Part shown: piece by piece, positions 3,939 through 17,908 of the stretch | How positions within the stretch are numbered: position 1 is the first letter of the stretch | Layout: each line of letters starts with the position of its first letter | Source of the DNA: Delftia acidovorans NBRC 14950 | Lineage (GTDB): Bacteria; Pseudomonadota; Gammaproteobacteria; Burkholderiales; Burkholderiaceae_C | Length of the DNA: 32,000 nt | Assembly: GCF_001598795.1 (NCBI RefSeq) | Contig: NZ_BCZP01000042.1 | Span: 2,237-34,236 of the forward strand | Direction of reading: 5' to 3' | Made by a program: the position numbers and the translations under genes | The notes under the pieces: model-generated | Database searches by the model: none | What the model saw: the letters and a program-made list of their open reading frames with translations, nothing else | What the model was told of the DNA's origin: nothing

Positions 3939-4008
3939 AGCGACCCGCAGCGCCCACTTTTGAGGTGCTTGTGGAGGGTTGCTGCAGGCCGACCCAATCC
4001 CCTCAGAC

Positions 4009-4030: not shown

Positions 4031-4367
4031 CTCTTGTCCACCGGCATTGATTACAAGCTACTCTGGCCTGGCCAAGCGCGGGACGGACAGCGAATGGGCT
4101 GGCCGCTCAGCCCTCGGCGATCTCCAGGCAGACTTCTACGGCAAAGACTTCGAGCGTGAAGGATTTGAGGTTCGCGTGCTTGCTGGCCAAAAGACCAAAG
4201 GCAGTGGACAGGCGCGCCGGCGCGCCCACGTGCTTGATGGCTTCCGCCTTGACGGTGACTTCTACAGAGCCGCGCTTCAAACTGCTTCATTGACCGGCTG
4301 ACTACACCGCCAAAAGAGATAGGTTGGCGCTGAGGCAGAATTAACCTATTTCCTGGCTGAGTGCGCA

Positions 4368-4625
4368 ATGGATCAAGACATCTGCTTTTTCTATTCTCAA
4401 GACCGCCAACGTCGCATCGCGCTTTTTCGTCGAGAGGTGGGAAGTTTTGGATTTGTCGAACAGTATTACTTCGACAACGAAGCCGCCGGCATCGAGGGGT
4501 GGGCCTCCTGCCCGTCAGAGTCATCCTTCTACGCTGACTTGGAGACTGCCAAGAAGGAAGCGGTACAAGGAATCCGATGGGCTGCGAGCGAAGATGGATT
4601 TGTCGCTGCCGGAAATGAGGTTTAG
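4368..4625 (+). CDS. Hypothetical small protein (85 aa)
   Basis: ATG ORF in an AT-richer segment. The translation is protein-like and acidic (MDQDICFFYSQDRQRRIALFRREVGSFGFVEQYYFDNEAAGIEGW...). No family recognised. Confidence 0.5.
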   Translation: MDQDICFFYSQDRQRRIALFRREVGSFGFVEQYYFDNEAAGIEGWASCPSESSFYADLETAKKEAVQGIRWAASEDGFVAAGNEV

Positions 4626-4741
4626 TCGCTGGGGGCGGACGATCCGCCTCGTTGCTCGACCTGCAGCTTGCGACCCGAAACGGAAGCAGTGACCGCAGGA
4701 AAGCGGACATTCAAGCGCAACAATTGCTACGTGTCTCAGGC

Positions 4742-5137
4742 TTACGTGGAGTTGGACTTTGGAAACTGCCTGGCATATGCCGCCACATGAGCCGGAAACA
4801 GCTCTTCGTAGATGGGATACGCAATTCCCAATACGCTTAGCTCCAAGCCTTCTGGCCCGAGCTCAAACGAATGGTCTTCGAGATGAATGGTGCCGCCGCC
4901 GGGCAGAGGCGAGCCGTTCGTTAGCCTTACTGAGAGGAAGAGGTGGTCCTGGCTCCCTCCAGCAGATTCGACGACTGCCTTCTGAACGTTGACGTATGCT
5001 GGGAGGGGAACGAAGCGCCCGAAGGCGACGTTCACCCCATACCGGACCTTCCACCGCCCGATAATTGACGCATGAACCCCTGGAAGCATGTCATCGCGAA
5101 GTTGTCCGACACTGGACCTCTTTTGGCTCACTGGCAT
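4742..5137 (-). CDS. Hypothetical protein (131 aa as drawn; true start uncertain)
   Basis: Protein-like translation (..GTIHLEDHSFELGPEGLELSVLGIAYPIYEELFPAHVAAY..). The 5' end overlaps the divergent ORF 5072..5395 by 66 nt, so one of the two starts must lie further in. No clear SD. Confidence 0.45.
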   Translation of the reverse strand: MPVSQKRSSVGQLRDDMLPGVHASIIGRWKVRYGVNVAFGRFVPLPAYVNVQKAVVESAGGSQDHLFLSVRLTNGSPLPGGGTIHLEDHSFELGPEGLELSVLGIAYPIYEELFPAHVAAYARQFPKSNST

Positions 5138-5395
5138 CTTTACTCGGGCGTAGCGTTCTACATGTACGTGCCGAGGAAGTCAGACATCGGCTCGGAGACT
5201 ATCAAGCCCGACTCCGAAGTGCGCTTTGAGGAAATAGCGCGGCTGGACATCATGCGCTCCCTGCGCCTTGGAGGCTTGGAGGCAACAAACGACCTCGACG
5301 TATGTCAACGTGCTGTTGCTTCAATTCCGGAAATAGCCTTGCAGGAAATCGAAGGCGGCATTCAGCTGAGTCTGCGCGGCACCGAAGTCCGCTAG
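5072..5395 (+). CDS. Hypothetical protein (107 aa; start uncertain)
   Basis: ATG ORF with protein-like sequence (..SEVRFEEIARLDIMRSLRLGGLEATNDLDVCQRAVASIPEIALQEIEGG..). Overlaps the 5' end of 4742..5137. Confidence 0.4.
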   Translation: MNPWKHVIAKLSDTGPLLAHWHLYSGVAFYMYVPRKSDIGSETIKPDSEVRFEEIARLDIMRSLRLGGLEATNDLDVCQRAVASIPEIALQEIEGGIQLSLRGTEVR

Positions 5396-5494
5396 TGGCC
5401 GAAGCCGGGCCTAGCTACTTGTGAGCGCAGCACCGCAAGGCTGACTGTAAGCGTCCGGTAAAGGCATCCGGCTGACGCCAGTCCCGCTCAAGCG

Positions 5495-5848
5495 TCAGAG
5501 TCGCTCCACCTCTTCGGCGCCCAGCTTGAACCGCTGGCCCGTGGATTCGGTGCCATGCACCTCGAATTCCGTTGCAGCGTCTCTGAGCGAGCTGCGGATG
5601 CTGCGAAGCAGCTCAACGGGCATGCCGCGATCCGGATCACTGGTATATCGGCACACCGACGTCTGCGTCTCGCTTGCTGGCACGAGATGGGTTCGAGCAA
5701 TGTCGATGTCGTTGAAGTCCCCTAATGTGCCCAGTGCCCACTCGTATTCGTTCTCAGCGTCGAACTCGACGGGGGCCAGCCCGATTCGTTCGGCAAGCTC
5801 CTCGAGCGAGAGCCCGGTTCTGAAGCTGATCGACAGGTATGTCTTCAT
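5495..5848 (-). CDS. Hypothetical acidic protein (117 aa from ATG 5848)
   Basis: MKTYLSISFRTGLSLEELAERIGLAPVEFDAENEYEWALGTLGDFNDIDIARTH... The track ORF (to 5980) adds 44 Cys/Arg-rich residues that run into the IS66 remnant and are unlikely to be real. Confidence 0.5.
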   Translation of the reverse strand: MKTYLSISFRTGLSLEELAERIGLAPVEFDAENEYEWALGTLGDFNDIDIARTHLVPASETQTSVCRYTSDPDRGMPVELLRSIRSSLRDAATEFEVHGTESTGQRFKLGAEEVERL

Positions 5849-5870
5849 CGAGTAAGTTGTGTTGTTGACT

Positions 5871-6019
5871 TCACTCTTGACATTCTCCTCGCCAGCAATG
5901 GGGCAGGAGCTCATTGATGCGGCTGGCCGGCTGCGTCGGCAGCAGTTCCAGCACGTCGCGCAAGTAGGCGTAGGGTTCAAGCTCGTTGAGCTTGGCCGAG
6001 TGAATGAGGCTCATCACGG
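5871..6019 (-). mobile_element. IS66-family transposase C-terminal remnant (pseudogene fragment)
   Basis: Minus-strand translation ..SLIHSAKLNELEPYAYLRDVLELLPTQPASRINELLPHCW matches the conserved extreme C-terminus of IS66 TnpC transposases (..AKLNGxxPxAYLxDVLxRLPxHPxxRIxELLPxNW). About 45 aa remain. No N-terminal part, tnpA/tnpB or terminal inverted repeat was seen. Confidence 0.7.
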
Positions 6020-6170
6020 CCGCGCCCTGCTGTTTGCGGAATACAAGCTCTCGCGCCGCAGCAAGCTGTATGCGGAACTGGACCGCACGCATTGGAGCGG
6101 AGGGTTTCAGGGCGGGCAGAACAAGGATGTGGCTACGGGGGTGACTGCGGGGTTGATGCATAGCTTCTGA
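6020..6170 (+). pseudogene. Orphan 3' fragment of a porin gene (last 49 codons plus stop)
   Basis: Encodes ALLFAEYKLSRRSKLYAELDRTHWSGGFQGGQNKDVATGVTAGLMHSF, identical at protein level to the C-terminus of the intact porin at 2861..3928. It abuts the IS66 remnant directly at 6019/6020. Confidence 0.9.
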
Positions 6171-6180
6171 GGGGCGCTGC
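6020..6180. repeat. Direct repeat copy 2
   Basis: See copy 1 (3778..3938). Confidence 0.95.
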
Positions 6181-6202
6181 GAGCGCTCGCCCCATTGCCA
6201 AC

Positions 6203-6481
6203 TCAGCCGCCCAGCTTTTTGAACGGAGTGTCGGAAGTGATCCAGCCCTTGCCTTGGGGGCAGATCACTTCCTTGTAACGCAGCTCTTTTTCAAAGCTCC
6301 ACTGCTGGCCAAGTGCGCAAACGTCCCCTGAGTTGAGGACAAATGCCACTGTCTGTGGATCGCCTTTTTTCAGCAGAACATCGACGCTTTGCGTCGCTTC
6401 CCACCGCCCACTCGGTGACTGGCTGCATCCCAGAGTTGCCAGCAACGCCGTGATCGCTGCCCCTCGCAGTAGGTTTTTCAT
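6203..6481 (-). CDS. Putative lipoprotein (92 aa)
   Basis: ATG 6481 is preceded by AAAGG. N-terminus MKNLLRGAAITALLATLGC carries a lipobox (L-A-T-L-G-C). The track start 6484 is a TTG one codon upstream. Confidence 0.7.
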   Translation of the reverse strand: MKNLLRGAAITALLATLGCSQSPSGRWEATQSVDVLLKKGDPQTVAFVLNSGDVCALGQQWSFEKELRYKEVICPQGKGWITSDTPFKKLGG

Positions 6482-6817
6482 CAACTGCCTTTCTGGTAGT
6501 TGTTGCGCGAAGACTTCCGAGCGACGGCTTCAGGCTGGTTGCCGACGTTCAGCGGAAACAATCAGACGACGGTTCTCGACCCAAAGCGGACATTGGTAAG
6601 TGCCCAAAAGTGGGCTCAGCTCGTTATGAGCGCATTTGCCAGACTGGTGCCTTCTGCCTGCGGAGCCACAGTCTTGCTTTCAGTTGGCATTTAGCCGGAT
6701 GGACACGGAGAGGGTCTTGAACAGCGGATGCCCCTGTCGTGCTTCCCAAGCAGCAGCTTCGCCGCTGAACTCGCGTTGATGCCGAAATAGATGGTGCTGG
6801 CCCCAAACCAAGGAGGC

Positions 6818-7204
6818 TCAGCACGGGAAATGGGGCGCATCGCCAGGCTTGCCGGCTTCGACCCATGCCAGCTTCTCGGTCAAGAAGGTGAGAGCTGCAT
6901 CGAGTGCTGCGCGCTGCGATTGCAACTTGTCTATCTGGTGCCGCAGGACCTGCCCCGTGCGTGCGGCGGACTTTGCACCCTGCCGGTACTCGCGGTTGAG
7001 CGCCGAGATCTCGCTCAACGTATAGCCCAGCGATTTCTGCAGCTGAATCATCCGCACCGCGGTCACGTCATCGGCAGAGAACACTTGGTACGGGTTGCTG
7101 CCACCCAGCACGCCGCGACGCGGCTTCAGCAGGCCCTTCCCCACATAGAAGCGGACCGTCTCGGGCGACAACCCCACCTCCTTCGCAAACTCCGACAACA
7201 GCAT
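6818..7204 (-). CDS. MerR-family transcriptional regulator
   Basis: MLLSEFAKEVGLSPETVRFYVGKGLLKP..YQVFSADDVTAVRMIQLQKSLGYTLSEI is a canonical MerR HTH plus wing, followed by a coiled-coil. Divergent from the AKR gene. Confidence 0.9.
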   Translation of the reverse strand: MLLSEFAKEVGLSPETVRFYVGKGLLKPRRGVLGGSNPYQVFSADDVTAVRMIQLQKSLGYTLSEISALNREYRQGAKSAARTGQVLRHQIDKLQSQRAALDAALTFLTEKLAWVEAGKPGDAPHFPC

Positions 7205-7213
7205 GCCGTCTCC

Positions 7214-7244
7214 TTGACCACGTAGTTAACTACGTGCTTATAAC
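7214..7244 (+). promoter_or_regulatory. MerR-type promoter/operator: TTGACC - 19-bp spacer containing a perfect 16-bp palindrome - TATAAC
   Basis: -35 TTGACC is at 7214-7219. The palindrome ACGTAGTTAACTACGT is at 7220-7235. -10 TATAAC is at 7239-7244, giving a spacer of exactly 19 bp (7220-7238). It lies 10 nt from the merR-like start codon. Confidence 0.75.
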
Positions 7245-7272
7245 AATGATTTTTCCACCTGGATCCAACGCC

Positions 7273-8256
7273 ATGCAATCTCCTCCCACAAAACTCCCTT
7301 GCGTTCATCTCGGCATAGACGGCCCACTCGTGGGCATCCAGGGTCTAGGCTGCATGGGTATGAGCGAATTTTATGGCGCCACTGACACCGAAGAGGCACG
7401 AGCAACACTGGAACGGGCGCTCGCCTTGGGTGTGACGCTGTTCGATACCGCAGACATGTACGGTCTGGGCGCCAACGAATCGTTCCTCGCGCCGTTTGTG
7501 AAGGCCAACCGGCAGCGCGTGGTGATCGCCACCAAGTTCGGCTACACGCGTACGGTCGAGAGGCCCGATGACTGGAGCCTCAGCAATCGCCCAGACTACA
7601 TCCGGCATGCGGTCGATCAATCGCTGCGGCGTCTTGGTATTGACACCATCGACCTCTACTACATGCACCGCCGCACACCTGACGTGCCCATGGAAGATTC
7701 GGTGGGCGCGATGGCGGATCTGGTGAAGGCCGGTAAGGTTCGGGCGCTCGGCTTGTGCGAGGTCAGTGCTGAAGAGTTGCGTGCAGCGCATGCCGTCCAC
7801 CCCATCGCCGCGATGCAGTCTGAATGGTCGGTGTTCAGCCGCCAGATCGAGCAAGAGATCGCACCGCTGGCGGCATCGCTGGGTGTCGCGATCGTGCCAT
7901 TCGCCCCATTGGGGCGGGGTATCCTGACCGGCGCTACGTTCGGCAAGCAGTTGGCAGCAGACGATTTCCGCCGACACTTCCCGCGCTTCCAGTCAGACAA
8001 CCAGGCGTCGAATTCGAGGCTGGTGGCGAGGTTGGAAGCGCTTGCCAAAGCCCGTGGCATCTCGACGGCGCAATTGGCGCTCGCCTGGCTGCAGACTCGC
8101 GCCAGGCAGTTCGACGTGACAGTCGTGCCTATTCCCGGCACGCGCCGTAGAGCGCGCCTCACCGAGAACGTGGCGGCTGCCTCCGTAGCATTGGATGAGC
8201 AGGAGATGTCGGCCATCGAGCCGCTGGCGGCGGCAGTTCAGGGCGTTTCGCTCTGA
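7273..8256 (+). CDS. Aldo/keto reductase (AKR11/13-like oxidoreductase)
   Basis: GIQGLGCMGMSEFYGATDTEEARATLERALALGVTLFDTADMYGLGANE... and a typical AKR C-terminal half. Start set to ATG 7273 because the track start (GTG 7234) lies inside the operator palindrome, upstream of the predicted -10. Confidence 0.85.
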   Translation: MQSPPTKLPCVHLGIDGPLVGIQGLGCMGMSEFYGATDTEEARATLERALALGVTLFDTADMYGLGANESFLAPFVKANRQRVVIATKFGYTRTVERPDDWSLSNRPDYIRHAVDQSLRRLGIDTIDLYYMHRRTPDVPMEDSVGAMADLVKAGKVRALGLCEVSAEELRAAHAVHPIAAMQSEWSVFSRQIEQEIAPLAASLGVAIVPFAPLGRGILTGATFGKQLAADDFRRHFPRFQSDNQASNSRLVARLEALAKARGISTAQLALAWLQTRARQFDVTVVPIPGTRRRARLTENVAAASVALDEQEMSAIEPLAAAVQGVSL

Positions 8257-8297
8257 GCATGGCGGCCTGCCGCACATTTTGACGCTGCACCCCAAAT

Positions 8298-8333
8298 CAA
8301 TTAATATCCGTCCAGTCGGAAATAAATTAATTG
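8298..8333. promoter_or_regulatory. AT-rich inverted repeat CAATTAAT-N20-ATTAATTG upstream of the TetR gene (candidate operator/promoter)
   Basis: 8-bp perfect arms at 8298-8305 and 8326-8333. The inner dyad is tccg-tccag-tcgga. It is the only AT-rich stretch in this intergenic region and ends 4 nt before the ATG. Confidence 0.35.
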
Positions 8334-8336
8334 CTT

Positions 8337-8924
8337 ATGGGACGCACGCGTGTAATAGATCAGGACAAGCTGCTGGACGCGGCAGAAGTCGTTGTGGCTC
8401 GGGACGGGCCTGCGAAGCTGACGCTGGAGTCCGTCGCCACCGAAGCTGGCGTTAGCAAGGCGAGCGTGCTGTACGACCACCGGTCCAAGCAGGCTCTGAT
8501 CCAGGCGCTCGTTCAGCGGGCACTGGTCCGGGACAACGCCTTCAACTCCGAAGCGGCGGAGCGTCTCGGCGAGATCGATTCCCGGACTGTCCGCGGGCGG
8601 ATTGCCGCGGCCGCCGCTCCGCTGCCAACAGCACAACGTGCCGTTGCCCTGAGCCTCAGCGCCGCGCTGGTGCAGGACGCAAGTCTGCGCGAGTCGATGC
8701 AGGCGAATCAGGCTGCCGTCATCGACGCAGTACAGAGTGACGCGGCGCAACCAAGGGGCGCGCTGCTTGCCTACTTGGCGCTGGAAGGGCTCAAGCTGTT
8801 GGAGAGCTTGGACTTCCACACATTCCCGAAGGCGGAGCGAGATCGCTTGCTGCGCGAGATCGAAGGGCTGGTCGACCGGCCTGTCGCACTTGATTCATTC
8901 GTGAGACCTCAGCGGCCCCGCTGA
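8337..8924 (+). CDS. TetR/AcrR-family transcriptional regulator
   Basis: MGRTRVIDQDKLLDAAEVVVARDGPAKLTLESVATEAGVSKASVLYDHRSKQALIQALV is a TetR N-terminal HTH. The track start 8331 is a TTG two codons upstream. Confidence 0.85.
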   Translation: MGRTRVIDQDKLLDAAEVVVARDGPAKLTLESVATEAGVSKASVLYDHRSKQALIQALVQRALVRDNAFNSEAAERLGEIDSRTVRGRIAAAAAPLPTAQRAVALSLSAALVQDASLRESMQANQAAVIDAVQSDAAQPRGALLAYLALEGLKLLESLDFHTFPKAERDRLLREIEGLVDRPVALDSFVRPQRPR

Positions 8925-9007
8925 GGCGCTCTACCCCATATCAATTCCCATCCCGCCCGGGCCGACAAGACGGCCCGCGGACTAACCACGTCAGTACGTA
9001 TCGAGTC

Positions 9008-10066
9008 ATGAACGCTGTTGTCTCTAAATTGCCTGAATCGCATCCCGCACGATTGCCAGCCCGCCTGTTCCTGACGGGGGGAAGCGGCTATGTCGGTCGC
9101 AACCTGATCCGCCACTTCGTCTCGCAAGGTGTCGAAGTCATCGCGCTGGCGCGCAGCCCCGCTGCACAGGACACGATTCGCGCGTCAGGGGCGAATCCGT
9201 TCGAGGGAGATCTGCTGTCGGAGAATCTAGCCACCGGCATGGCGGGCTGCGATGCCCTGATTCACGCCGCAGCGGATACGGACCACGGTCTCTCCACGGA
9301 CGCACAGTTTCAGACGAACGTCATAGGTACGCGCCACGTGTTCGCAGCTGCTGCGCGAGCAGGCGTGCGGCGGGCTGTGCACCTGAGCACGGAGTCAGTG
9401 CTCCTAGACGGAAGCCCACTGGTGGACGCCGAAGAAAGCCGATCCATCCCCACCAGACCGGTCGGCGGCTACTCCGCCACGAAAGCTCTGGCGGAACGCG
9501 AGGCGATTGCCGCTGCGCGGCACGGACTAGACGTCGTCATCGTCCGCCCGCGCTTCATCTGGGGACGCGACGACACGACCGCGCTTCCGCAACTGCTGCA
9601 GGCTGTGGATGCTGGGAAGTTCGCCTGGATCGATGGTGGCCGCTATCGCACGTCAACGACGCACATCGGTAATCTGGTGCACGGTATCGAGCGCGCGCTG
9701 ATCGCTGGCGAGACGGGCGCCTGCTACTTCATCACAGATGACGACATCGTGGAGTTTCGTGCATTCATCAGCGCATTGCTACAAAGCCAAGGACGCTCTG
9801 TCCCGACCAAGGAGGTTCCGGGCTGGGTGGTACGGGCCGTGGCCAGCGTCTGCGAACGTCTGTCGTCACTGACCGGCGGACGGTGGCGCCCGCCGGTCAC
9901 CCGGCAGGCACTGGCGCCCTCGGCCGTTGAGGTGACGTTGAACATCGACAAGGCTCGACGCGAACTGGGCTACCAGCCGCAAATCTCGCGCGCGCAAGGG
10001 CTTGAGGAACTAACGCTCGAGGACCGAGGTGAAAAGGGGCACCTGACAAGGAGTAAGCTGACTTAG
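9008..10066 (+). CDS. NAD-dependent epimerase/dehydratase-family (extended SDR) protein
   Basis: Rossmann motif LFLTGGSGYVGRNLIRHFVSQGVEVIALARS. YSATK fits the catalytic YxxxK. Length of 352 aa is typical. Confidence 0.8.
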   Translation: MNAVVSKLPESHPARLPARLFLTGGSGYVGRNLIRHFVSQGVEVIALARSPAAQDTIRASGANPFEGDLLSENLATGMAGCDALIHAAADTDHGLSTDAQFQTNVIGTRHVFAAAARAGVRRAVHLSTESVLLDGSPLVDAEESRSIPTRPVGGYSATKALAEREAIAAARHGLDVVIVRPRFIWGRDDTTALPQLLQAVDAGKFAWIDGGRYRTSTTHIGNLVHGIERALIAGETGACYFITDDDIVEFRAFISALLQSQGRSVPTKEVPGWVVRAVASVCERLSSLTGGRWRPPVTRQALAPSAVEVTLNIDKARRELGYQPQISRAQGLEELTLEDRGEKGHLTRSKLT

Positions 10067-10161
10067 CCGATTCAATACGGCCGGATTGTTGATTTCCACG
10101 CACCCCCAGATTGCTTCGGTACTAACATGAAGCATAAAGGTGCTCTGAGGGCATCTTTTTG

Positions 10162-10446
10162 TCACTTGAGAATGGCAGCTTTGCAAGCTAGGAACTGAGG
10201 CCGAGTGAGGATTCCAGCCTGCCTAAGCATTTCCATGGCTTGTATTGCTTTGGCTGTCTGAGCGGCAGGTGATGCTTGGGAAGGTTGTACTACAGCTTTT
10301 TTCTCTGAAGATGACTTCCTTGGCTGATCCCCGAAATCGATGTACTTGACCTGCCATGGCGCGTATCCAACTGCTGCAGCCTCTGCAATTTCATCTGCAG
10401 AGTAGCCTTGGCTATGCATGTCATGTAGAAAGTCCCAGTCGCTCAT
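10162..10446 (-). CDS. Hypothetical small protein with SHOCT-like C-terminal motif
   Basis: ATG is preceded by AGAGGG. The C-terminus MEMLRQAGILTRPQFLACKAAILK resembles the SHOCT short C-terminal oligomerisation motif. Lies in an AT-richer segment. Confidence 0.5.
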   Translation of the reverse strand: MSDWDFLHDMHSQGYSADEIAEAAAVGYAPWQVKYIDFGDQPRKSSSEKKAVVQPSQASPAAQTAKAIQAMEMLRQAGILTRPQFLACKAAILK

Positions 10447-10474
10447 GTTGCGCCCTCTAGTTTTGGCTCTTTAC

Positions 10475-10503
10475 AGCGTACAGGATGCTTGGCGGATCGT
10501 CAA
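10475..10503 (-). promoter_or_regulatory. Candidate sigma-70 promoter for 10162..10446 (TTGACG-17 nt-TACGCT on the minus strand)
   Basis: -35 is at 10498-10503 and -10 at 10475-10480 in plus coordinates, with a 17-nt spacer, about 30 nt upstream of the ATG. Confidence 0.3.
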
Positions 10504-10679
10504 AATTGACCACAGCTAGCTTCAATGTCTGGAGGATGGCTGATCTTCAACTGTCACAGATCGCCCCTATGCTGACGTTCGAGTCTCGATGAGCAATGTC
10601 TGCTTTGCAGCGGTTGCAGCCGCTTATTGCAGCTGGGCGAACTACCGCTCACCTAGTCATAGCGCTCTTTCAGAGCGCC

Positions 10680-10708
10680 AAAACAGTCACTTCCCCAATG
10701 ACTGTTTT
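10680..10708. terminator. Perfect 10-bp hairpin AAAACAGTCA-(9 nt)-TGACTGTTTT, bidirectional terminator-like
   Basis: A4/T4 flanks form part of the stem. It lies 134 nt downstream of the stop of the 10843..11466 gene on the minus strand. A second hairpin (gcgctct-ttc-agagcgc) sits at about 10661-10677. Confidence 0.5.
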
Positions 10709-10842
10709 CAGGTCCGCAGCAGCCCCTCGCTAACAGGCAGTCACTGGGGATGCAGGAAGTCCGCTATCTCGGCCCGCGAATGAGTGCTGTCGACCCTTTC
10801 CTGACAAACGCTCTTGCCCAAAGCGGTCATTGGCGTCGCTCG

Positions 10843-11466
10843 TTAGCGGTCGTTCGACGTAAAGAGCGTTTGGTCGCCGGGATCGGTTACAACCGAAATC
10901 CCGGCCGCGTCGACCATTACCAGAAAGCCTTCAGGCAATACCAATGCCGCCGCGAGCTCGGGTCGCATCTTGAGCAACTGAAACGCGAAAACGGCTTCGA
11001 GCGCTGGAGCCAGCTCGCGAGGCCCTTGCTGGCCGATGAACCAGCCAGAATCGCCGTCGGTGGGACTGGGTGCGCTACGCACCATGAACAAATTGTCCGC
11101 ACTGAGGCATCCCTGGTCGATGACCACCTTGTCTTGAAAAGTGGTAGGAACGGGTTCGACGTCAATCTTCTTGGCGAATGAGATTTGATTGAAAAGGACC
11201 TGCAGCGCGTTGCTCACATCGGTCGTCTCGTCTTTGAACGGGTCCGCATCGACATCTGGCACGCAAACCGCGAGTTCATTTGAAGGCAGGCGTCGAAAGG
11301 ACATGAGCATGCTACCGACCTGCAGTCGCACTTCCTCGCCTACGCTTTGCCCAGACCCGTGGAGACGAGTCAGGCAGTCGAGCAACCATTCGGCGTGAAC
11401 AGCCATGCTGTCCGCACAAGCAACGGTTACCACCTCATCGCCGATCGCTGCATGTTTCTGAAGCAC
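10843..11466 (-). CDS. Hypothetical protein, C-terminal half DSGW-motif domain (possibly Imm33/DUF2185-like immunity-type domain)
   Basis: GTG start is preceded by GAAGGA at 5 nt. The C-terminal region reads ..SAPSPTDGDSGWFIGQQGPRELAPALEAVFAFQLLKMRPELAAALVLPEGFLVMVD. The family assignment is from memory and tentative. Confidence 0.6.
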   Translation of the reverse strand: MLQKHAAIGDEVVTVACADSMAVHAEWLLDCLTRLHGSGQSVGEEVRLQVGSMLMSFRRLPSNELAVCVPDVDADPFKDETTDVSNALQVLFNQISFAKKIDVEPVPTTFQDKVVIDQGCLSADNLFMVRSAPSPTDGDSGWFIGQQGPRELAPALEAVFAFQLLKMRPELAAALVLPEGFLVMVDAAGISVVTDPGDQTLFTSNDR

Positions 11467-11790
11467 TTCAATCCTTCATCTTCTGAACACAATGTCTGCT
11501 GTTGGCCGAATTCTGCCTCACGCGTCGGGGGCTACGCGCCCGGACCGGCCATCGATGTCCGTTCTTTGAACGTCGGCAACCGCTGCAAAGCCGCCACACA
11601 CAACCCACAGATCAGCATCACCAAATGGGTCGATATCAGATCAGAAGCTAGACGACTGGCCAAGCCAGCGGATCAGTTCCGAGGGAGAGCCCAATTGCTT
11701 GGCTCTGCGACTGACCCATTCCAAGCGTATGCACAAGGCATTCAAGTTCCCGCGACGGATGAAAGATTCAGCCATCAAGACAGGACAGAC

Positions 11791-12450
11791 TCAGAGCTTG
11801 GCCCCGACCCATATGGCTCGCCCTTGCACCAGGCCCTCAGCCTTCCCGGCAATGACGATATCCGGGTGCTCGCCCTTATCAGCGTTGTCGGCCACGGCAT
11901 GCCAAACATCGCCCACCCGCTGAAAGCGCCGCACAAGCATCTGCCCTTCCCACGCGAATGCATAGACGCTGCCACGGCGCGGCGTTTGATCCGCACGATT
12001 GAGCAAGAGCACGGCACCGTCCCGGATCGTGGGCTCCATGCTGGTTCCTGCCACATGGACGAGGGCCGCGTTCACCGGGCTGACGCCGATAGCACGCAGA
12101 AAATCGCGTCGGAACTGGAGAGCCCCGAGTTCCTCGACAAGATTGGTTTTTCGAGAGCGTTCGGGCGCGGCTTCAGCATCCAGGCGGACGAGTTGGATGA
12201 AGTCCTCACCTTCCGCGACACGGCCTCGCAACAAGGTATCGACGTCCACGCTGAAGTAATCAGCAAACTTCTGCAGTGACTCCATTCGCACGCCAGTTTC
12301 CCCGCCAACGATGCGCTGCAAAGTGCCCTGCCCGATGTCGAATCCAGCATTCTTCATGTCACTACGCAGGCGCCCGATCGCCTTGCCCTTGATCATCAGG
12401 GCAGCGTTTTCGGCCAATGTTGCGTTCACGAAGCTGCGCATGGGCAGCAT
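11791..12450 (-). CDS. CI/LexA-like repressor 1: XRE-type HTH + peptidase S24 domain
   Basis: The N-terminus carries an HTH (..GFDIGQGTLQRIVGGETGVRMESLQKFADYFSVDVDTLL). The C-terminus is S24-like (VHVAGTSMEPTIRDGAVLLLN ... GQMLVRRFQRV). Confidence 0.85.
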   Translation of the reverse strand: MLPMRSFVNATLAENAALMIKGKAIGRLRSDMKNAGFDIGQGTLQRIVGGETGVRMESLQKFADYFSVDVDTLLRGRVAEGEDFIQLVRLDAEAAPERSRKTNLVEELGALQFRRDFLRAIGVSPVNAALVHVAGTSMEPTIRDGAVLLLNRADQTPRRGSVYAFAWEGQMLVRRFQRVGDVWHAVADNADKGEHPDIVIAGKAEGLVQGRAIWVGAKL

Positions 12451-12465
12451 TCTTTGGTCTTGCTA

Positions 12466-12479
12466 TACCGATTTCGGTA
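12466..12479. promoter_or_regulatory. Inverted repeat TACCGA-TT-TCGGTA, 16 nt upstream of the repressor 1 start (candidate operator)
   Basis: 6-bp perfect arms. On the minus strand it abuts a TATAGC -10-like hexamer. It shares the 11-mer CCGAAATCGGT with 14090-14100. Confidence 0.4.
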
Positions 12480-12634
12480 CGATAGAGTTAGTGCAAATTC
12501 ACTTGAATTCGCCAGTTTTGAAGAGCCAGCCTATGGCTCAACTTAAAACTTCTCATACCGCGTTCGGTGAAGCTGTCCAAACTCTGGATCAACTTGGCCG
12601 CACAAGCTTCAACTAGACGCAGACGCCTACATCC

Positions 12635-13351
12635 ATGCACATCACCCACCACTTCACCCCTGGCCTGCGCTTCGCTGCGCAATGGAAGTACGCCGCCCGC
12701 GCGCCATCGGGCCGGGCCTGTTGGTCGCGGCTGCCGCTGGGGCAGCCTGATGCGGGCAGGGCTGATCCGCATGGCGCCTGGTGGTGTGTGCGGCGCTGCG
12801 CTGCCGTGCTGCGGCGGGAGATGTGGCAGTCGGTGAATCTGCCTTCAGACATACCTTTGCGGCCGGGGCCGGAAGATGTGGCGCTGGCCCTGAACGCGCT
12901 GATGCCGCGCTGGCAGGTACAACTGAGCGCAGGGGCCGGGCACATGTCCATGCAGTCCTGCACCCAGGCAGTGATGGCCGGGGGCGGAGCGGTGCTGCAA
13001 CTGCAGTCAGAGGCGCTGCACCAGCGGCCGCAGAGCACGTTCTGGGCCTGGGTGATTGGCGTGGAGATGCATCAGAAGATGCGGCCCGCGCCGGTGAAGC
13101 CATGGCCCGCAAGCCGCGCGCCCCGCCCTGTCGCGCTGCTGACCATTCCCTTTGGCTGGAGCATGCCCTGGGCCTGCGGCTATGCGGCGCGGGTGCAGAT
13201 GAACAGCGACGGGCGCTGCGATGTGGATGGCATTGACGGGCAGTGGCGCGAGTGCCGCTGCCTTGCCGCCGTGACGCTGTCGCCCGCGCAAGACGTGCAA
13301 CGCGGCCAACACGGCCATGCCGGCCTCCTGCAGGGGTACCCACTGTGTTGA
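12635..13351 (+). CDS. Unknown-family paralog A (238 aa)
   Basis: ATG ORF. Aligns along its full length with the products of 14391..15104, 15142..15885 and 15908..16594. Shared blocks include GLRF..W.Y, DP.GAWWCVRRCAAVL, FWAWVIGVE, ALLTIPFG and CLAAVTL. Confidence 0.8.
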   Translation: MHITHHFTPGLRFAAQWKYAARAPSGRACWSRLPLGQPDAGRADPHGAWWCVRRCAAVLRREMWQSVNLPSDIPLRPGPEDVALALNALMPRWQVQLSAGAGHMSMQSCTQAVMAGGGAVLQLQSEALHQRPQSTFWAWVIGVEMHQKMRPAPVKPWPASRAPRPVALLTIPFGWSMPWACGYAARVQMNSDGRCDVDGIDGQWRECRCLAAVTLSPAQDVQRGQHGHAGLLQGYPLC

Positions 13352-13440
13352 TGCCTGCCCGCGTCGGAAGATTTTCCCAAGCCGCTTGTCGCTTGCCACC
13401 ATCCATGAACCACGGGCGCGGTGCCAGGGCTTCGGCCCTG

Positions 13441-14106
13441 CTACCTGGCCTGGAGCCGCCGGCGATGCTCCACCACGGTGCCGCGCAACTGCAGTGCCTG
13501 CTCGTCGCTGCACAGTGTGGGATGGTCTTCGTTGAGCGGCACCAGCTCGAAGATTTCCGCACCGGCCTTGTCCAGGCCGCGCACCCGGTACTTGCGCAAG
13601 ATGGACTGTTGCCGGCAGTCGGTGGCCAGCACGCAGTCCCCGGGCCGCGGCGTCAGGGCTGGATCGATGAGCACGCGGTCCCCTTCCCGGATTTCCGGGG
13701 CCATGGCGTTGTCTTCCAATCGCACGAAGAACGCACGAGGCGATGCGTTGTCGCTGGCGACTTCGATGCCCAGGAACTGCTCGTCGTCGGCATCGCCCAT
13801 GGCGTCTTCTGCGCTGCGGCCGCCGGCCTGCTGCAGGCCAAGCAGCGGGTAGCGGCGTGTGCCCTGGGGCAGTTGGCGCTGCAGCGCTGCGGCATCGGCC
13901 GACATGGGGCCCTTGCCGCATTCCAGCCACAGGGCCGAGACACCGCACAGGGACGCGAGCGTGGCTGTTTTGGAGGTGCCGCTTCCGCTTCTCTCAAGGT
14001 CAGCAATGGTCGATTGCCCCATGCCCGCCTGGCGGCCCAGCTGCGCTTGGGTAAGACCCGCGAGACTGCGAGCGCTTTTGAGACGTTGGCCGAAATCGGT
14101 TGACAT
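13441..14106 (-). CDS. CI/LexA-like repressor 2: XRE-type HTH + peptidase S24-like domain
   Basis: MSTDFGQRLKSARSLAGLTQAQLGRQAGMGQSTIADLERSGSGTSKTATLASLCGVSALWL is an XRE HTH. The C-terminus reads FFVRLEDNAMAPEIREGDRVLIDP ... SILRKYRV, which is S24-like. Confidence 0.85.
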   Translation of the reverse strand: MSTDFGQRLKSARSLAGLTQAQLGRQAGMGQSTIADLERSGSGTSKTATLASLCGVSALWLECGKGPMSADAAALQRQLPQGTRRYPLLGLQQAGGRSAEDAMGDADDEQFLGIEVASDNASPRAFFVRLEDNAMAPEIREGDRVLIDPALTPRPGDCVLATDCRQQSILRKYRVRGLDKAGAEIFELVPLNEDHPTLCSDEQALQLRGTVVEHRRRLQAR

Positions 14107-14170
14107 GCTCCGTAGCTTACGGAAAACCGATATGTCAAATTCGATTGTAAAAAAATCGACTTTTCGATAG
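14090..14170. promoter_or_regulatory. Switch region between repressor 2 and the Cro-like gene: dyads and repeated TCGA half-sites
   Basis: CCGAAATCGGT at 14090-14100. CCGTA-gct-TACGG at 14110-14122. TCGATT-N7-AATCGA at 14141-14159. Further half-sites are aaccgata at 14126-14133 and tttcgata at 14162-14169. This 73-bp intergenic region is the AT-richest stretch locally. Confidence 0.45.
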
Positions 14171-14179
14171 CATGAAACT

Positions 14180-14413
14180 ATGGAATGGAAAGACTACCTC
14201 GCCAGACTTGCTGCGAAGGGTGTCAGTCAAAGCCAGATCGCCCGCGAAGTGGGCTGCGGTCAAGCAACGATTTCTGACCTCGCATTGGGCAAGACCAAAG
14301 AGCCGCGCACATCCCTGGGTATGGCGCTCATGCGCATCGGGGACCGCTGCGGCATCAAGACTCCGTACGGTGCCCCGCCTTCGGCACACGATGATGAGAG
14401 GTCCTGTGGCTGA
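14180..14413 (+). CDS. Cro-like small HTH DNA-binding protein (77 aa)
   Basis: MEWKDYLARLAAKGVSQSQIAREVGCGQATISDLALGKTKEP.. is a single HTH of the Cro/YdaS type. It is divergent from a CI-like repressor, the classic immunity-switch geometry. Confidence 0.75.
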   Translation: MEWKDYLARLAAKGVSQSQIAREVGCGQATISDLALGKTKEPRTSLGMALMRIGDRCGIKTPYGAPPSAHDDERSCG

Positions 14414-15104
14414 GACCACGCACCTCACCCACCGCTTCACCCGAGGGCTTCGCTTTGACGGACTGTGGACCTACTCGGCGCTCACGCCTTCAGGCCGAGC
14501 CTATTGGGCACGACTGCCGGCAACCCGGGCAGGCGGCATGGCTGCAGCAGATCCACAGCGGGCCTGGTGGTGCGTGCGCCAGTGCGTTGCAGTGCTCAAT
14601 CGCAGGCCCTGGCGTTCCGCGCATCTGCCCTCGGGCCTGCCTGCGCAGCCGGAATGTGGCGATGTGGCGCTGGCCCTGGGCGCAATGCTTGCGGACTGGA
14701 ACGTGAAGGTGCTCGATGACCCCTCGACACAGGCGCCGCTGCTGCGCAGCACCGATGCGCTGCTTGCCGGTGGCTGCTCTTTGCTGCAACTGCAGACCGA
14801 GGATTCAAGCGATGGCGTGCAAGCCGTTTTCTGGGCCTGGGTGATCGGCGTGGAAATGCACGAGAGGTTCCAGCGCGCCAAGCGCATTTCAGCCTTTGAC
14901 ATGCCCGGGCGTCCTAGCGCGCTGCTGATCTGGCCCTTCGGCTCGCCCCTGGCATGGAATCACGCCTTGAGGGTGACGGTGGATGGCGAGGGGCTGTGTG
15001 ATGTGGATGGCCTGGATGCGCGCGCAAGCCGGTACCGCTGCACGGCGGCCATCACGCTGGAGCCACTGAGCAACGACATTGCCATCAACGGCAGCTTCTC
15101 CTGA
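14391..15104 (+). CDS. Unknown-family paralog B (237 aa from ATG 14391; alternative GTG 14406)
   Basis: Homology to paralog A begins at THLTHRFTRGLRFDGLWTY. AGAGG lies just upstream of GTG 14406. The start overlaps the end of the Cro-like gene. The track ORF start 14172 is an out-of-frame overlap with the Cro-like gene and is rejected. Confidence 0.8.
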   Translation: MMRGPVAETTHLTHRFTRGLRFDGLWTYSALTPSGRAYWARLPATRAGGMAAADPQRAWWCVRQCVAVLNRRPWRSAHLPSGLPAQPECGDVALALGAMLADWNVKVLDDPSTQAPLLRSTDALLAGGCSLLQLQTEDSSDGVQAVFWAWVIGVEMHERFQRAKRISAFDMPGRPSALLIWPFGSPLAWNHALRVTVDGEGLCDVDGLDARASRYRCTAAITLEPLSNDIAINGSFS

Positions 15105-15136
15105 CCGGCTTTTTCTGACCGGCTTTTCCTGACCCG
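15101..15136. repeat. 14-bp tandem repeat x2.5: CTGACCGGCTTTTT / CTGACCGGCTTTTC / CTGACCCG
   Basis: Read directly from the sequence. The first TGA (15102-15104) is the stop of paralog B. TGAs at 15102, 15116 and 15130 fall in all three frames. Confidence 0.9.
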
Positions 15137-15141
15137 ATGAA

Positions 15142-15885
15142 ATGCAGAACTCCAATCTCACGCCAGAGCAGTACGAGCGGGAAATTCCGCTGGAGCCAAG
15201 TAGTCCCGGTCAACGCCTCATCAGCGGCCTGCTCTTTGATGGTCACTGGCAATACATAAGGCGTGCGGAAGCCGGCAAGACCAGCTGGACACAGCTGCCG
15301 ATGGCCTCCGACCTTGCTGGCCCGGCCGACCCTTATGGCACCTGGTGGTGCGTTCGCCGGTGCGCCGTGGTTCTGGAGCAGCACCACTGGTTGTTCCTGC
15401 GGCTGCCCGTTCACCTGCCCCCGCTTCCCGACGTGGAGGAGCTGGCGCAGATCCTTGATGTGCTGCTGCCCGATTGGGACGTGCAGGCACCTGCGGAATG
15501 CGCCCGGACGCCCTTGCTGTGCGCCCAGGCAGTCGAGCAGGGAGGCAGTGCCTTGCTGATGCTGGAGTCACCGGAATGCGAAGGGCCCAAGCCGGGCATT
15601 TTCTGGGCCTGGGTGGTGGGGTACGAGCCGGAGCTGCCGTTGTCGTGCACCGACGATTGCGTTGCGTCCGAAACGTTGCCGTCAGCGGGTGCGCAGGCCA
15701 TGGCGCCTCCCAAGGCTTTGCTTGCCATGCCCTTTGGCTCGACCCTGCCCTGGTCCAGCGGGTACGCCACCCGGATCCAGGTGCAAGCCGACGGGACCTG
15801 CCTCCTGCATGATGCGGGCGGCCCCTGGCACCCATGCCAGTGGCTTGGCACGGTCACGCTTGCAGCCAGGCCCGCACCGGACTGA
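15142..15885 (+). CDS. Unknown-family paralog C (247 aa)
   Basis: Same block structure as the others: GLLFDGHWQY, DPYGTWWCVRRCAVVL, FWAWVVGYE, ALLAMPFG, CQWLGTVTL. Confidence 0.8.
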   Translation: MQNSNLTPEQYEREIPLEPSSPGQRLISGLLFDGHWQYIRRAEAGKTSWTQLPMASDLAGPADPYGTWWCVRRCAVVLEQHHWLFLRLPVHLPPLPDVEELAQILDVLLPDWDVQAPAECARTPLLCAQAVEQGGSALLMLESPECEGPKPGIFWAWVVGYEPELPLSCTDDCVASETLPSAGAQAMAPPKALLAMPFGSTLPWSSGYATRIQVQADGTCLLHDAGGPWHPCQWLGTVTLAARPAPD

Positions 15886-15907
15886 CGCTGGTGACTCTGC
15901 AGCCGCA

Positions 15908-16594
15908 ATGCACATGCCCAGGTCTCCAATTCGTACCTTCATGCCCGGCCTGCGCTTCGATACGCAATGGCGCTACGAGGTGGGTACACAGACGCGCAAG
16001 ACGCGCTGGGCCACACTGCCCACGGTTCCCGATGCCCAGTGCCTGCCCGATCCGCTGGGCGCCTGGTGGTGTGCACGGCGATGCGCTGCCGTGCTGCGGC
16101 AACGGGCATGGCTGCAGGTGCAATTGCCGCTGCAGTTGACGCCACAGCCCGGCCCGCAAGAGCTGGCGCAGGTTCTGGCTTTGCTGCTGCCCGGCTGGAA
16201 AGCGCAGCTTGAGAATTTCCCCGCCCTCGCTCCGCTGCGTTGTGCCCAAGCCATGCAGCGGGGCGGCAGCGCCATGCTGCTGCTGGAAATGCCAGGTCAC
16301 AGATTTCGCCACCCGGCGCTCTTCTGGACCTGGGTGATCGGCATGGAGCGATCACCGCTGCGCCTGCGCTCTGCAAAAAATCTCACGCGCCTCGAACCCT
16401 ATCCACCAGCGCAGCCGCTGCCCGAAACCTTGCTGGCCATGCCCGCCCGCCGCTCAAGGCCCGGCGCCAACCGCCACGTCACCCGCATCCAGATGGACGC
16501 CGCCGGGCGCTGCATCTCGGATGACGCCGCCTGGCCATCGGATGGATGCAGGTGGCTGGCCTGCATCACGCTGGAGCAGTTGGGCGGGGGTTGA
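15908..16594 (+). CDS. Unknown-family paralog D (228 aa)
   Basis: From ATG 15908: MHMPRSPIRTFMPGLRFDTQWRY, DPLGAWWCARRCAAVL, FWTWVIGME, LLAMP, CRWLACITL. The track start 15662 overlaps paralog C out of frame and is rejected. Confidence 0.8.
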   Translation: MHMPRSPIRTFMPGLRFDTQWRYEVGTQTRKTRWATLPTVPDAQCLPDPLGAWWCARRCAAVLRQRAWLQVQLPLQLTPQPGPQELAQVLALLLPGWKAQLENFPALAPLRCAQAMQRGGSAMLLLEMPGHRFRHPALFWTWVIGMERSPLRLRSAKNLTRLEPYPPAQPLPETLLAMPARRSRPGANRHVTRIQMDAAGRCISDDAAWPSDGCRWLACITLEQLGGG

Positions 16595-16633
16595 GCTGTG
16601 GTCGCGGCAGCCAGGCGCCCTGCGCTGCACGCC

Positions 16634-17812
16634 TCAGGTCGGCGTATCCACGTCATCCCAGTCATTGCCCTCGAAGCGCACCAGCCAGTTCAGCGCATGG
16701 TGGCGTTCCATGAGCACGTCGGCGCTCAGCCCGGCGGGCGCGGGCTGCTGTTGCACCTGGGCCTGGCGCACGATCCAGTGCAGGCGGTAGTGCTGGTCCA
16801 GGGCGTCGAGGATTTCGCTGTCGGGCCGCATGCGTGCGGCATGCAGGGCGCCTTGCAGGTCGCCCGCCTGCAGCAGGGTGCGCGAGGTGAGCGGCACATC
16901 GCAGATGGCGTCGGGGAACGGCAGCGCATCGACCAGGCCCAGCGCCCATTCCAGCAAATACGCGGCTTCGTAGCGCCAGCCGAACTTGGCGATGGCCTCT
17001 TCGGAGGGCTGGGCAGTGGCCATGAATTCGCGCTCGTTGGGGGTGAGCGCAGCCTGGGCGGCCGGCAGGCGCTGGAACAGCTGCTCGGGCGTGAGCGGTT
17101 CGCCACTGGTCAGTGCTTCGTTCAGTGCGTCGTTCAGTGATTCGGCGCGCACGGCCACGGCCAGCAGGGCAAAGGCACGGGCGGCGATCTCGTCGGGTGC
17201 GCGCATGCGCAGTTCGGGCTCGGAGATCAGCGGCGGCAGGCTGGCCGCTGGCGTGAAGCCGCGCTGCGCCAGCACCTGTTCGCTGCGCTGCTTGCGATGC
17301 CAGGCCTGCTGCGGATAGGGCAGCGCAGCCTGGTCATCAGGCTCGGCGCCGCTGGCATCCAGCAGGATGCGGCCCTGCGGGTCGCGGATGCTGCCGTCCG
17401 TCAGAAAGGCGATGGCGTTGGCGCGCTGTGCCCAGCCGGCAAAGGCATCGAGCTGGGCCGGCGCAATGCCCAGGCTCAGGTGCTGCTGCACGCGCTGGAT
17501 GTGGCGCATGGCGTGGTAGCGGTTGCGCGTCATCTGCCCATCGCCGCGCCCCAGCACATAGCCGACAAAGCCTGAAAGATGCGATGCCAGTTCGGGGTCC
17601 GACAGATCGCGGCGCCCGGCCAGCGTGTGCGCAAAGTCAAGCGCGGGAAGGTCCCAGACGGTGCAGTAGGCGTTGATGAGTACTTCGTCTTCTGCGGCAT
17701 CCGACTGGGGTTCGTGCGGCTGGTGCTGGTTTTGCGGGTGTTCCTGTTGGCGAGCGGGCTCGGGGGCGGGCTTGCTGAATGCGGTCTTGAGGCGGGTGAG
17801 GAGGTTTTTCAT
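16634..17812 (-). CDS. Hypothetical two-domain protein (392 aa), C-terminal half possibly DUF4272-like
   Basis: Start at ATG 17812 (MKNLLTRLKTAF..). A low-complexity Q/P/H linker is followed by a globular N-domain. The C-terminal half reads ..KFGWRYEAAYLLEWALGLVDALPFP...ILDALDQHYRLHWIVRQA...VLMERHHALNWLVRFEGNDWDDVDTPT. The DUF4272 resemblance is from memory and tentative. The track start (GTG 17887) adds a PNPGTNPGT stretch encoded by a DNA tandem repeat. Confidence 0.7.
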   Translation of the reverse strand: MKNLLTRLKTAFSKPAPEPARQQEHPQNQHQPHEPQSDAAEDEVLINAYCTVWDLPALDFAHTLAGRRDLSDPELASHLSGFVGYVLGRGDGQMTRNRYHAMRHIQRVQQHLSLGIAPAQLDAFAGWAQRANAIAFLTDGSIRDPQGRILLDASGAEPDDQAALPYPQQAWHRKQRSEQVLAQRGFTPAASLPPLISEPELRMRAPDEIAARAFALLAVAVRAESLNDALNEALTSGEPLTPEQLFQRLPAAQAALTPNEREFMATAQPSEEAIAKFGWRYEAAYLLEWALGLVDALPFPDAICDVPLTSRTLLQAGDLQGALHAARMRPDSEILDALDQHYRLHWIVRQAQVQQQPAPAGLSADVLMERHHALNWLVRFEGNDWDDVDTPT

Positions 17813-17822
17813 GTTCACGGGC

Positions 17823-17846
17823 TTGGTTCCGGGGTTGGTTCCGGGA
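17823..17846. repeat. 12-bp tandem repeat TTGGTTCCGGGG / TTGGTTCCGGGA (plus partial TTGGGA)
   Basis: Read directly. It lies 11 nt upstream of the 17812 start codon, in the 96-bp gap before the sigma-54 activator stop. Confidence 0.85.
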
Positions 17847-17908
17847 TTGGGAGCGGCAGGAATCACCCCGCCTCTTGGCCACAGCACGGCCTGCAGGCGG
17901 CGGGTGAC

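Follow-up and report, generated by a model that had tools for sequence, protein, structure and literature searches.

Four tandem paralogs with a predicted papain-like fold behind exchangeable CI-like repressors in a hypervariable locus of Delftia acidovorans

The 32,000-nt stretch of the Delftia acidovorans NBRC 14950 genome analyzed here (hereinafter, the window; NCBI RefSeq assembly GCF_001598795.1, contig NZ_BCZP01000042.1, positions 2,237 to 34,236 of the forward strand) contains, between window positions 11791 and 16594, the genes of two CI-like repressors, R1 and R2, a gene of a small Cro-like protein, and four tandem genes of paralogous proteins A, B, C, and D, hereinafter called the cargo (Table 1). 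An original prediction made from the sequence alone had described this layout, with minus-strand repressors combining a helix–turn–helix (HTH) and an S24 domain and a Cro-like HTH gene; its domain assignments were confirmed by Pfam and PHROGs, and the coordinates of all open reading frames (ORFs) in the segment were confirmed. Both repressors match Peptidase_S24 (PF00717, E 6.5e-14 for R1 and 7.9e-11 for R2) and one PHROG "transcriptional repressor" family, phrog_4, and ORF 14180–14413 encodes an HTH_3 protein that matches a PHROG transcriptional regulator (phrog_6831, E 4e-13). The start of B is probably GTG 14406 and not ATG 14391 as assumed before, given the GAGAGG Shine–Dalgarno (SD) sequence and the homology with strains lacking the Cro-like gene, which resumes at position 14407. 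Module 2 has a CI/Cro-type arrangement, that is, R2, a 73-nt intergenic region with a palindrome, and the divergent Cro-like gene, and module 1, formed by R1 and A, has no Cro-like gene. The repressor and cargo genes are divergently transcribed, unlike the co-transcribed adjacent genes of type II toxin–antitoxin pairs; the HTH domain of R2 resembles HipB-type antitoxins at the domain level only (TIGR03070, E 5e-9, below cutoff). Genes for an integrase, replication, structural proteins, or lysis, which the original prediction had not seen in the window, were likewise absent among the ORFs scanned between 4.3 and 17.9 kb.

Table 1. Genes, putative operators, and the replacement segment of the locus (window coordinates).
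Feature	Coordinates	Strand	Description
R1	11791–12450	minus	CI-like repressor; weak HTH_26 N-domain and Peptidase_S24 C-domain (Pfam); PHROG phrog_4; LexA alignment
Putative R1 operator 1	12466–12479		TACCGATTTCGGTA; perfect palindrome TACCGA-TT-TCGGTA; conserved in L005
Putative R1 operator 2	12556–12568		TACCGCGTTCGGT; some 65 nt ahead of the start of A; conserved in L005
Paralog A	12635–13351	plus	238 aa; papain-like-fold family (predicted)
Replacement segment, 1.1 kb	13292–14406		A tail, R2, and Cro-like gene; from megablast breakpoints and the L017 junction
R2	13441–14106	minus	CI-like repressor; HTH_31/HTH_3 and S24; phrog_4
Inverted repeats	14095–14138		ATCGGTT/AACCGAT, TTGACAT/ATGTCAA, TCCGTA/TACGGA; overlap the R2 start codon, ribosome-binding site, and 5' leader
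Putative module-2 operator	14141–14159		TCGATT-N7-AATCGA; just upstream of the Cro-like gene; unique in the window
Cro-like small HTH protein	14180–14413	plus	77 aa; HTH_3; kept together with R2-type repressors
Paralog B	14406–15104	plus	Probable start GTG 14406, SD GAGAGG; alternative ATG 14391; modeled with AlphaFold 2
Paralog C	15142–15885	plus	247 aa; cluster contains Daci_2535 (strain SPH-1)
Paralog D	15908–16594	plus	228 aa

The four cargo proteins align over their full length, as had been noticed by eye, with 45 invariant columns that include the WWCxRxC, FWxWVxGxE, and LL..P blocks; B, C, and D are 47%, 40%, and 38% identical to A, respectively, and all six pairs fall between 37 and 49%. 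Synonymous and non-synonymous divergence was estimated by the NG86 method, with orthologs taken from eight other loci in Delftia and Comamonas assemblies. The ortholog dN/dS ratios are 0.12–0.55 for A–D (dS up to 0.39), 0.20–0.35 for the repressors, and 0.10–0.38 for the Cro-like gene, and dS between paralogs is near saturation (mostly 0.84–1.05, and 1.65 for the B–D pair). Judged by these ratios, none of which is near 1 for the cargo, A–D are selected coding sequences and not GC-driven shadow ORFs, in agreement with the original prediction, and evolve fairly fast.

The profile libraries yielded no credible assignment for this family. Searches with A–D produced no match in Pfam, NCBIfam, and PADLOC (in the latter, none below E 0.03, and likewise for 25 distant members), and the only PHROGs match, of C to phrog_5050 (E 0.0027, 25 residues), was treated as noise; the same holds for the Pfam search with 41 family members and the NCBIfam and PADLOC searches with 25 distant members, where nothing credible was found. 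A sequence-profile search of the PDB with the family gave zero matches even at E 10, an IMG/VR scan found no relative, and no match was obtained by tblastn with A against phage and plasmid records or with a distant member against plasmids. There are 206 to 264 near-identical database members, annotated as Delftia hypothetical proteins, and the exact proteins of the window are public as D. acidovorans hypothetical proteins QQB51976-81 (locus tags DR66_1741-45). The family comprises 28 clusters in a set of 5.8 billion proteins and 71 cluster representatives among 1.84 billion; in the representative genomes of 185,579 species, it was found at five loci, all in Delftia, Comamonas, or Acidovorax, and the traceable members belong to Comamonadaceae or to unassigned metagenome contigs. 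Literature searches on DUF932 with YqaJ, on PF18897, and on Delftia S24 repressors in the SOS response found nothing relevant.

The original prediction could assign the family to no known domain, and sequence profiles did not place it either, but its structure can be placed with AlphaFold 2 (AF2) and Foldseek. The AF2 model of B, built on an alignment of 22 sequences (predicted local distance difference test, pLDDT, 85; predicted template modeling score, pTM, 0.83), has as its best PDB neighbors staphopains C, A, and B, IdeS/IdeC/Mac-1, TDE_0362, the C39 domain of PCAT1, and UfSP2, and also two papain-like toxins. The second model (pLDDT 82.5), built from a separate alignment for a distant, island-type family member sharing 22% identity with B, matches IdeC, IdeS/Mac-1, and TDE_0362 at E 1.9e-5 to 6.5e-4, followed by the C-terminal domain of BtaeB and by UfSP. 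Almost all of the top PDB matches belong to the papain-like peptidases (probability up to 1.00), and the search against the BFVD viral structures gave nothing below E 0.001. As two independent models from different alignments match the same peptidases, the predicted papain-like cysteine-peptidase fold of the family is robust across them.

The cargo shares with the clan CA papain-like peptidases (staphopain C47, IdeS/Mac-1 C66, UfSP) the overall alpha+beta fold, in which the first core helix has Cys or another small residue at its N-terminal end and a beta-sheet comes next. It differs from them by an extra four-strand N-terminal beta unit and by the lack of the catalytic His and, in the Delftia clade, of a conserved Asn/Asp; the identity in structural alignments is 4–17%, with no sequence-profile match. 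In the B model, Cys61 lies near the N-terminus of helix 58–69, the nucleophile site of papain-like enzymes. Only Trp148, Gly153, Glu155, and Leu179 are invariant in the 41 family sequences, and no His is invariant or near-invariant among them. By the papain H-x5-G spacing, the expected His position is occupied by Phe147, adjacent to Trp148, and residue 147 varies throughout the family. The nucleophile position of distant members is occupied by Cys, Ser, Ala, or Gly, and the Asp of their ALLLLD motif corresponds to Pro in the Delftia clade. Given the lack of a conserved His and the variable nucleophile position, the family looks like a pseudo-peptidase lineage, and we infer from the papain-like fold without the catalytic His that the cargo would act on its target by binding and not by cleavage. 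On reading the cargo sequences, neither a signal peptide nor an extended hydrophobic segment was seen, and the proteins appear to be cytoplasmic.

The same residues could be read differently, namely, that the Delftia and Comamonas cargo proteins are active non-canonical Cys-dependent enzymes (a protease, deamidase, or transferase) using Cys61 with another partner such as Glu155 or Arg63, and that, once derepressed, they modify a target in the cell or in an invader, much as toxins or abortive-infection systems do. Residues Trp59, Trp60, Cys61, Arg63, and Cys65 of the WWCxRxC block are invariant in 22 members of the closer clade, and Glu155 in the entire family; the modeled location of Cys61 at a helix N-terminus, the papain-like toxins among the structural neighbors (the C-terminal domain of the type VI secretion effector BtaeB and the toxin of entry 9l5u), and the fit of tight repression to a toxic product point in the same direction. 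Nevertheless, nowhere in the family is a His conserved, in many relatives the nucleophile is Ser, Ala, or Gly although the fold is otherwise retained, the ALLLLD Asp of distant members is Pro in this clade, and four toxin genes without an immunity gene would be unusual, so that we consider an active enzyme rather unlikely. Two further candidate roles were rejected: that of an ImmA-like protease acting on its own repressor, as no catalytic His is present, and that of a bacteriocin or secreted effector, which is unattractive given that neither export features nor a partner immunity gene were seen.

Distant and intermediate family members occur in another setting, as the terminal gene of an operon, after genes encoding DUF932, a YqaJ/RecE-like exonuclease (a match to phrog_434, E 3e-82), and a Gp3-like protein (PF18897, "recombination directionality factor-like"). 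This order was seen at twelve loci (L002–L004, L009–L013, L032, L035, L037, and L038), and in the called genes of L002–L004, L011, and L012 the start of the family member overlaps the stop of the Gp3-like gene. The neighborhoods include a YagK/YfjJ-type protein and an H-NS gene, and L002 additionally has IS elements and metal-resistance genes; these loci are integrative islands, and their YagK/YfjJ and H-NS neighbors resemble islands of the CP4-57 type. The DUF932/Gp3-like backbone is also present on plasmids of Pseudomonas, Acinetobacter, and Psychrobacter, where unrelated genes follow the Gp3-like gene, and hence the slot after this gene is a variable, accessory one. The backbone, with or without YqaJ, is widespread on gammaproteobacterial plasmids (e.g., the P. 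frederiksbergensis plasmid L040 and the A. baumannii plasmid L041), with the Gp3-like gene annotated there as "hydrolase or metal-binding protein"; the module is closed by a convergent XRE HTH gene in L010, L013, and L040, and by an AlpA gene instead in L041.

The genomic association could mean that the family member assists the recombination module made up of the exonuclease and the Gp3-like protein, e.g., as a nuclease inhibitor or as a cofactor of the Gp3-like protein, and that the Delftia array consists of domesticated recombination or repair modulators. The gene order of the twelve loci, the stop–start overlaps, and the RecE-like identity of YqaJ are in line with this, and lambda Red has a third, inhibitor-type partner, Gam. 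We regard this explanation as unlikely, since the cassettes of the Delftia type have neither YqaJ nor a Gp3-like gene nearby, and the unrelated genes in the plasmid slot show that the partner is not obligatory. The window likewise has none of the genes of these island and plasmid operons, and its cargo genes, unlike the distant members, have apparently been moved under CI-type control.

Wherever a locus of the Delftia/Comamonas type extends to the upstream side, a divergent S24 repressor is present there, of the R1 type on its own or of the R2 type together with the Cro-like gene, even if the cargo is only 43–46% identical to A. Thus, the expected linkage to S24 regulators holds for every locus of this type examined, but not for the distant homologs in the island operons. 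The common architecture is a single regulator followed by contiguous A-B-C-D, the regulator being R1 in L015 and L017, and R2 with the Cro-like gene in L019–L021 and L023; L024–L027 have three cargo copies, and the D. tsuruhatensis type strain has A and a truncated B. The arrangement of the window is common to L005 and L014, and its 1.1-kb segment with R2 and the Cro-like gene replaces 66 nt between the aligned blocks elsewhere. Therefore, the two-module arrangement, judged by the comparison of loci, is a recombinant variant and not the design: the cargo is "gated twice," as the original prediction had it, only in a minority, derived form. In L006, an A-type gene (89% identical DNA) stands behind R2 and the Cro-like gene, and the trio of R2, the Cro-like gene, and the operator region between them is conserved in L001, L005, L006, L014, L019–L021, L023–L025, L028, and L029. 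By this comparison, R1 and R2 with its Cro-like partner are interchangeable before the same cargo, and the regulators have been exchanged freely. Two single-copy cassettes were found on two contigs of one sample (JGI metagenome 3300042598), L001, with R2, the Cro-like gene, and the cargo among ordinary chromosomal genes, and L042, with an R1-type repressor and the cargo about 5 kb from a DUF4272 gene; a related organism may carry the cassette at more than one chromosomal site.

This record also bears on the possibility that the genes are remains of a prophage or island that has decayed and no longer functions, retained only by chance or through addiction to the repressor. While the site is a hypervariable hotspot, truncated copies exist (L007, L030, and L031 carry a B fragment), and the translation signals are weak, dN/dS is well below 1 in each of the four genes, several assemblies conserve the set of four at 97–99% and more divergent ones at about 70–87%, and the paralogs have kept about 45 invariant positions at 37–49% identity. 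Decay is therefore very improbable.

Self-cleavage of S24 repressors depends on a Ser–Lys dyad. R1 keeps the Ser motif (GTSMEP) and has Arg at the catalytic Lys position (MLVRRF). In the window R2, the EDNAMAP motif aligns to GNSM of lambda, with Ala in place of the nucleophile Ser; L014 and L001 likewise have Ala, and the remaining R2-type sequences have Ser. The match of R2 to full-length lambda CI (3bdn, E 4e-5) sets ILRK opposite TFKK, with Arg at K192; a one-residue shift of ILRKY would put the neighboring Lys there, but the Arg would then face the core. In a 28-sequence alignment that includes E. coli LexA, Arg occupies the LexA K156/lambda K192 column in 25 out of 25 R1- and R2-type sequences covering this region. 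Thus, R1 and R2 are similar to lambda CI and LexA in combining an HTH N-domain with an S24 C-domain, and R2 aligns with CI through the Ala–Gly region, but both differ from them in the broken dyad. As the Ser–Lys dyad is not intact, self-cleavage is, by these alignments, excluded for the window R2 and doubtful for R1. The R1-type repressors have near-identical S24 C-domains joined to two unrelated N-terminal DNA-binding domains (one in L015, L007, and L030, the other in the window), which suggests that specificity changes by domain swapping, as it does in phage immunity regions; both N-domains occur in one ORF (6235–7266) of the Comamonas metagenome-assembled genome L008.

Under an SOS model, R1 and R2 would be self-cleaving repressors of the LexA/CI type, and DNA damage would, via RecA*, induce the cargo as a defence, toxin, or bacteriocin-like effector. 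Apart from the S24 domains themselves, it has on its side the LQQAGG motif of R2, aligned with the Ala–Gly cleavage site of lambda CI (VQAGMF), the Ser retained in R1 and in some R2 orthologs, and a repressor–cargo layout that we take to resemble Pseudomonas AlpR/AlpA and PrtR/PrtN. R1, however, has no Ala–Gly at the aligned position, the catalytic Lys is replaced in all repressors covering the region, and the Ser in R2 of the window, L014, and L001; no LexA box (CTGT-N8-ACAG) is present in either intergenic region, matches to it being below chance overall, and no secretion signal, lysis gene, or immunity partner was seen for the cargo upon reading the sequences. The description of the switches as LexA-like, which implies RecA-stimulated self-cleavage, is thus not upheld, and induction by DNA damage seems distinctly unlikely.

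The intergenic regions contain putative operators (Table 1). The operator pattern of the R1–A region is expected 0.09 times in the window and does not occur there again. A small ORF in the same region (12534–12616) was discarded, since it differs from its L005 counterpart mostly by changes that alter the amino acid. The core of the inverted repeats at the R2 start, AGCTTACGGAAAACCGATA, is conserved in four orthologous loci; these repeats could serve as an operator for R2 autoregulation or, in the mRNA, form a structure that controls R2 translation. At the position of the module-2 operator, the orthologous loci have ACCGCT-N9-AGCGGT (L001) and ATCGTT-N8-AACGAT (L006), so that the symmetry is kept while the sequence changes, as would be expected for operators of heteroimmune repressors if these sites are bound. 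In the scan for promoters and terminators, terminator-like sites occurred at or below the level expected by chance.

Taken together, these observations suggest a mobile-element-derived cassette with a repressed pseudo-peptidase operon used in mobile-element or phage–host conflict, an explanation to which, taken as a whole, we assign a probability of about 0.45. The small cassette, residing in a hypervariable chromosomal hotspot of D. acidovorans, would be controlled by R1, and by R2 with its Cro-like partner, binding the palindromic operators in the divergent intergenic regions and presumably keeping the four-paralog operon silent; its products would be cytoplasmic pseudo-peptidases acting by binding a target. 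The family would have begun as the last, translationally coupled gene of the DUF932/YqaJ-exonuclease/Gp3-like operon on integrative islands and related elements, and in Delftia and Comamonas would have been captured behind interchangeable CI-like regulators and then amplified to A-B-C-D. Since the S24 domains have no intact dyad, derepression is probably not caused by RecA-stimulated self-cleavage; the more likely routes, by analogy with Qin dicA/dicC/dicB and Gifsy, are an antirepressor and the Cro-like partner, and stochastic switching could play the same part. The likeliest role, a part in mobile-element or phage–host conflict (exclusion, anti-defence, or growth-inhibiting takeover), is inferred from the origin in an accessory slot of a recombination operon, the fairly fast evolution, and the retention of four members.

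Several points weigh against this explanation. Among the repressors, R1 and some R2 orthologs retain the Ser, and residual or trans cleavage may occur. As for the cargo, the template modeling scores to peptidases are modest (0.40–0.46 on the query), the placement of Phe147/Trp148 at the His site follows from motif spacing and strand order and not from coordinates, and the invariant WWCxRxC block of the closer clade could mean Cys-dependent activity, a metal site, or another acquired role. The SD sequences of A, C, and D are weak, as had been cautioned, and no sigma-70 consensus promoter was found in the region 11400–17000. Finally, PADLOC and IMG/VR gave no match backing a defence or phage role, and no literature was found that cites the SPH-1 locus tags around Daci_2535.

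A more specific and quite improbable version would make the cassette a chromosomal tripwire, in which the non-cleavable repressors, with DNA-binding domains swapped between strains, are inactivated when a phage or island enters and brings an antirepressor or a Cro-like protein, and four diverged pseudo-peptidase decoys are thereby released. Were it true, each decoy would bind and neutralize a different invader protein or host target, and the family would represent a new class of defence or exclusion effectors, recruited from the accessory slot of an island recombination operon.

The hypervariable site lies between a porin gene and the gene of a sigma-54 activator. The cassette is adjoined by an Imm33-like gene (10843–11466, minus strand; PF24719, E 6.6e-16), and this neighbor prompted the idea of an orphan immunity array against polymorphic toxins, which was rejected, as different loci have different flanks and the ancestral setting of the family is a recombination operon. 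On the other side lies a DUF4272 gene (16634–17887, minus strand; E 1.5e-72), the usual right-hand neighbor of the cassette in Delftia; as it is replaced in several assemblies (L014, L022, L023, and L026), it seems to belong to the variable hotspot and not to the cassette itself. Upstream, a 161-nt direct repeat (97%; 3778–3938 and 6020–6180), which duplicates the 3' end of the porin gene (2825–3928), flanks a 2.08-kb insert of lower GC content with ORFs of unknown kind, absent in D. tsuruhatensis NBRC 16741. At its right end, an IS66 C-terminal remnant (ORF 5871–6161, minus strand; PF13817) runs into the right repeat, and the insert has the look of an element that integrated at the 3' end of this gene and then decayed, the porin gene being the site and no integrase being left. 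The GC content falls from about 68% to 53–64% over window positions 4000–12000, a region that holds regulator–enzyme pairs (MerR with an aldo-keto-reductase-like ORF and TetR with an NAD-dependent epimerase) and several small ORFs without a family match.

A remnant CI/Cro switch over cargo genes is a known architecture. The closest parallel, dicA/dicC/dicBF of the E. coli cryptic prophage Qin (PMC10448788), is also a chromosomal remnant, with a non-structural, potentially toxic cargo operon gated by a CI-like repressor and a Cro-like gene divergent from it; DicA is released via the antirepressor Rem, and derepression comes about by an antirepressor or spontaneous switching and not by self-cleavage of the repressor, as we propose for Delftia as well. 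The differences are the unrelated cargo (DicB and DicF vs. a four-paralog array of proteins with the papain-like fold), the degenerate S24 domain of the Delftia repressors, and the lack of other prophage genes nearby among the ORFs scanned. In the racR/ydaS/ydaT system of the Rac prophage, the repressor gene similarly diverges from those of a small HTH protein and the cargo, the cargo being described as toxins and the repressor as de facto immunity (PMC5700377, PMC5700373), but these cargo families are unrelated to A–D, and the Delftia module 1 has no Cro-like gene. Gifsy prophages have non-cleavable repressors inactivated by antirepressors (PMC3121763), which R1 and R2 resemble in that the dyad is not intact. 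What is new in Delftia is the cargo family, its papain-like pseudo-enzyme character, as predicted, and the tandem four-paralog expansion behind swapped, dyad-less S24 repressors.

Thus, a previously undescribed protein family now has a predicted fold, two conserved genomic settings, and a clear regulatory partner, which makes it experimentally approachable, and the locus adds a betaproteobacterial case to the small set of remnant CI/Cro switches over non-phage cargo. If the cargo does act in mobile-element conflict, the tandem array of four paralogs and the swapping of its regulators would be a compact model for the domestication and diversification of mobile-element accessory genes.

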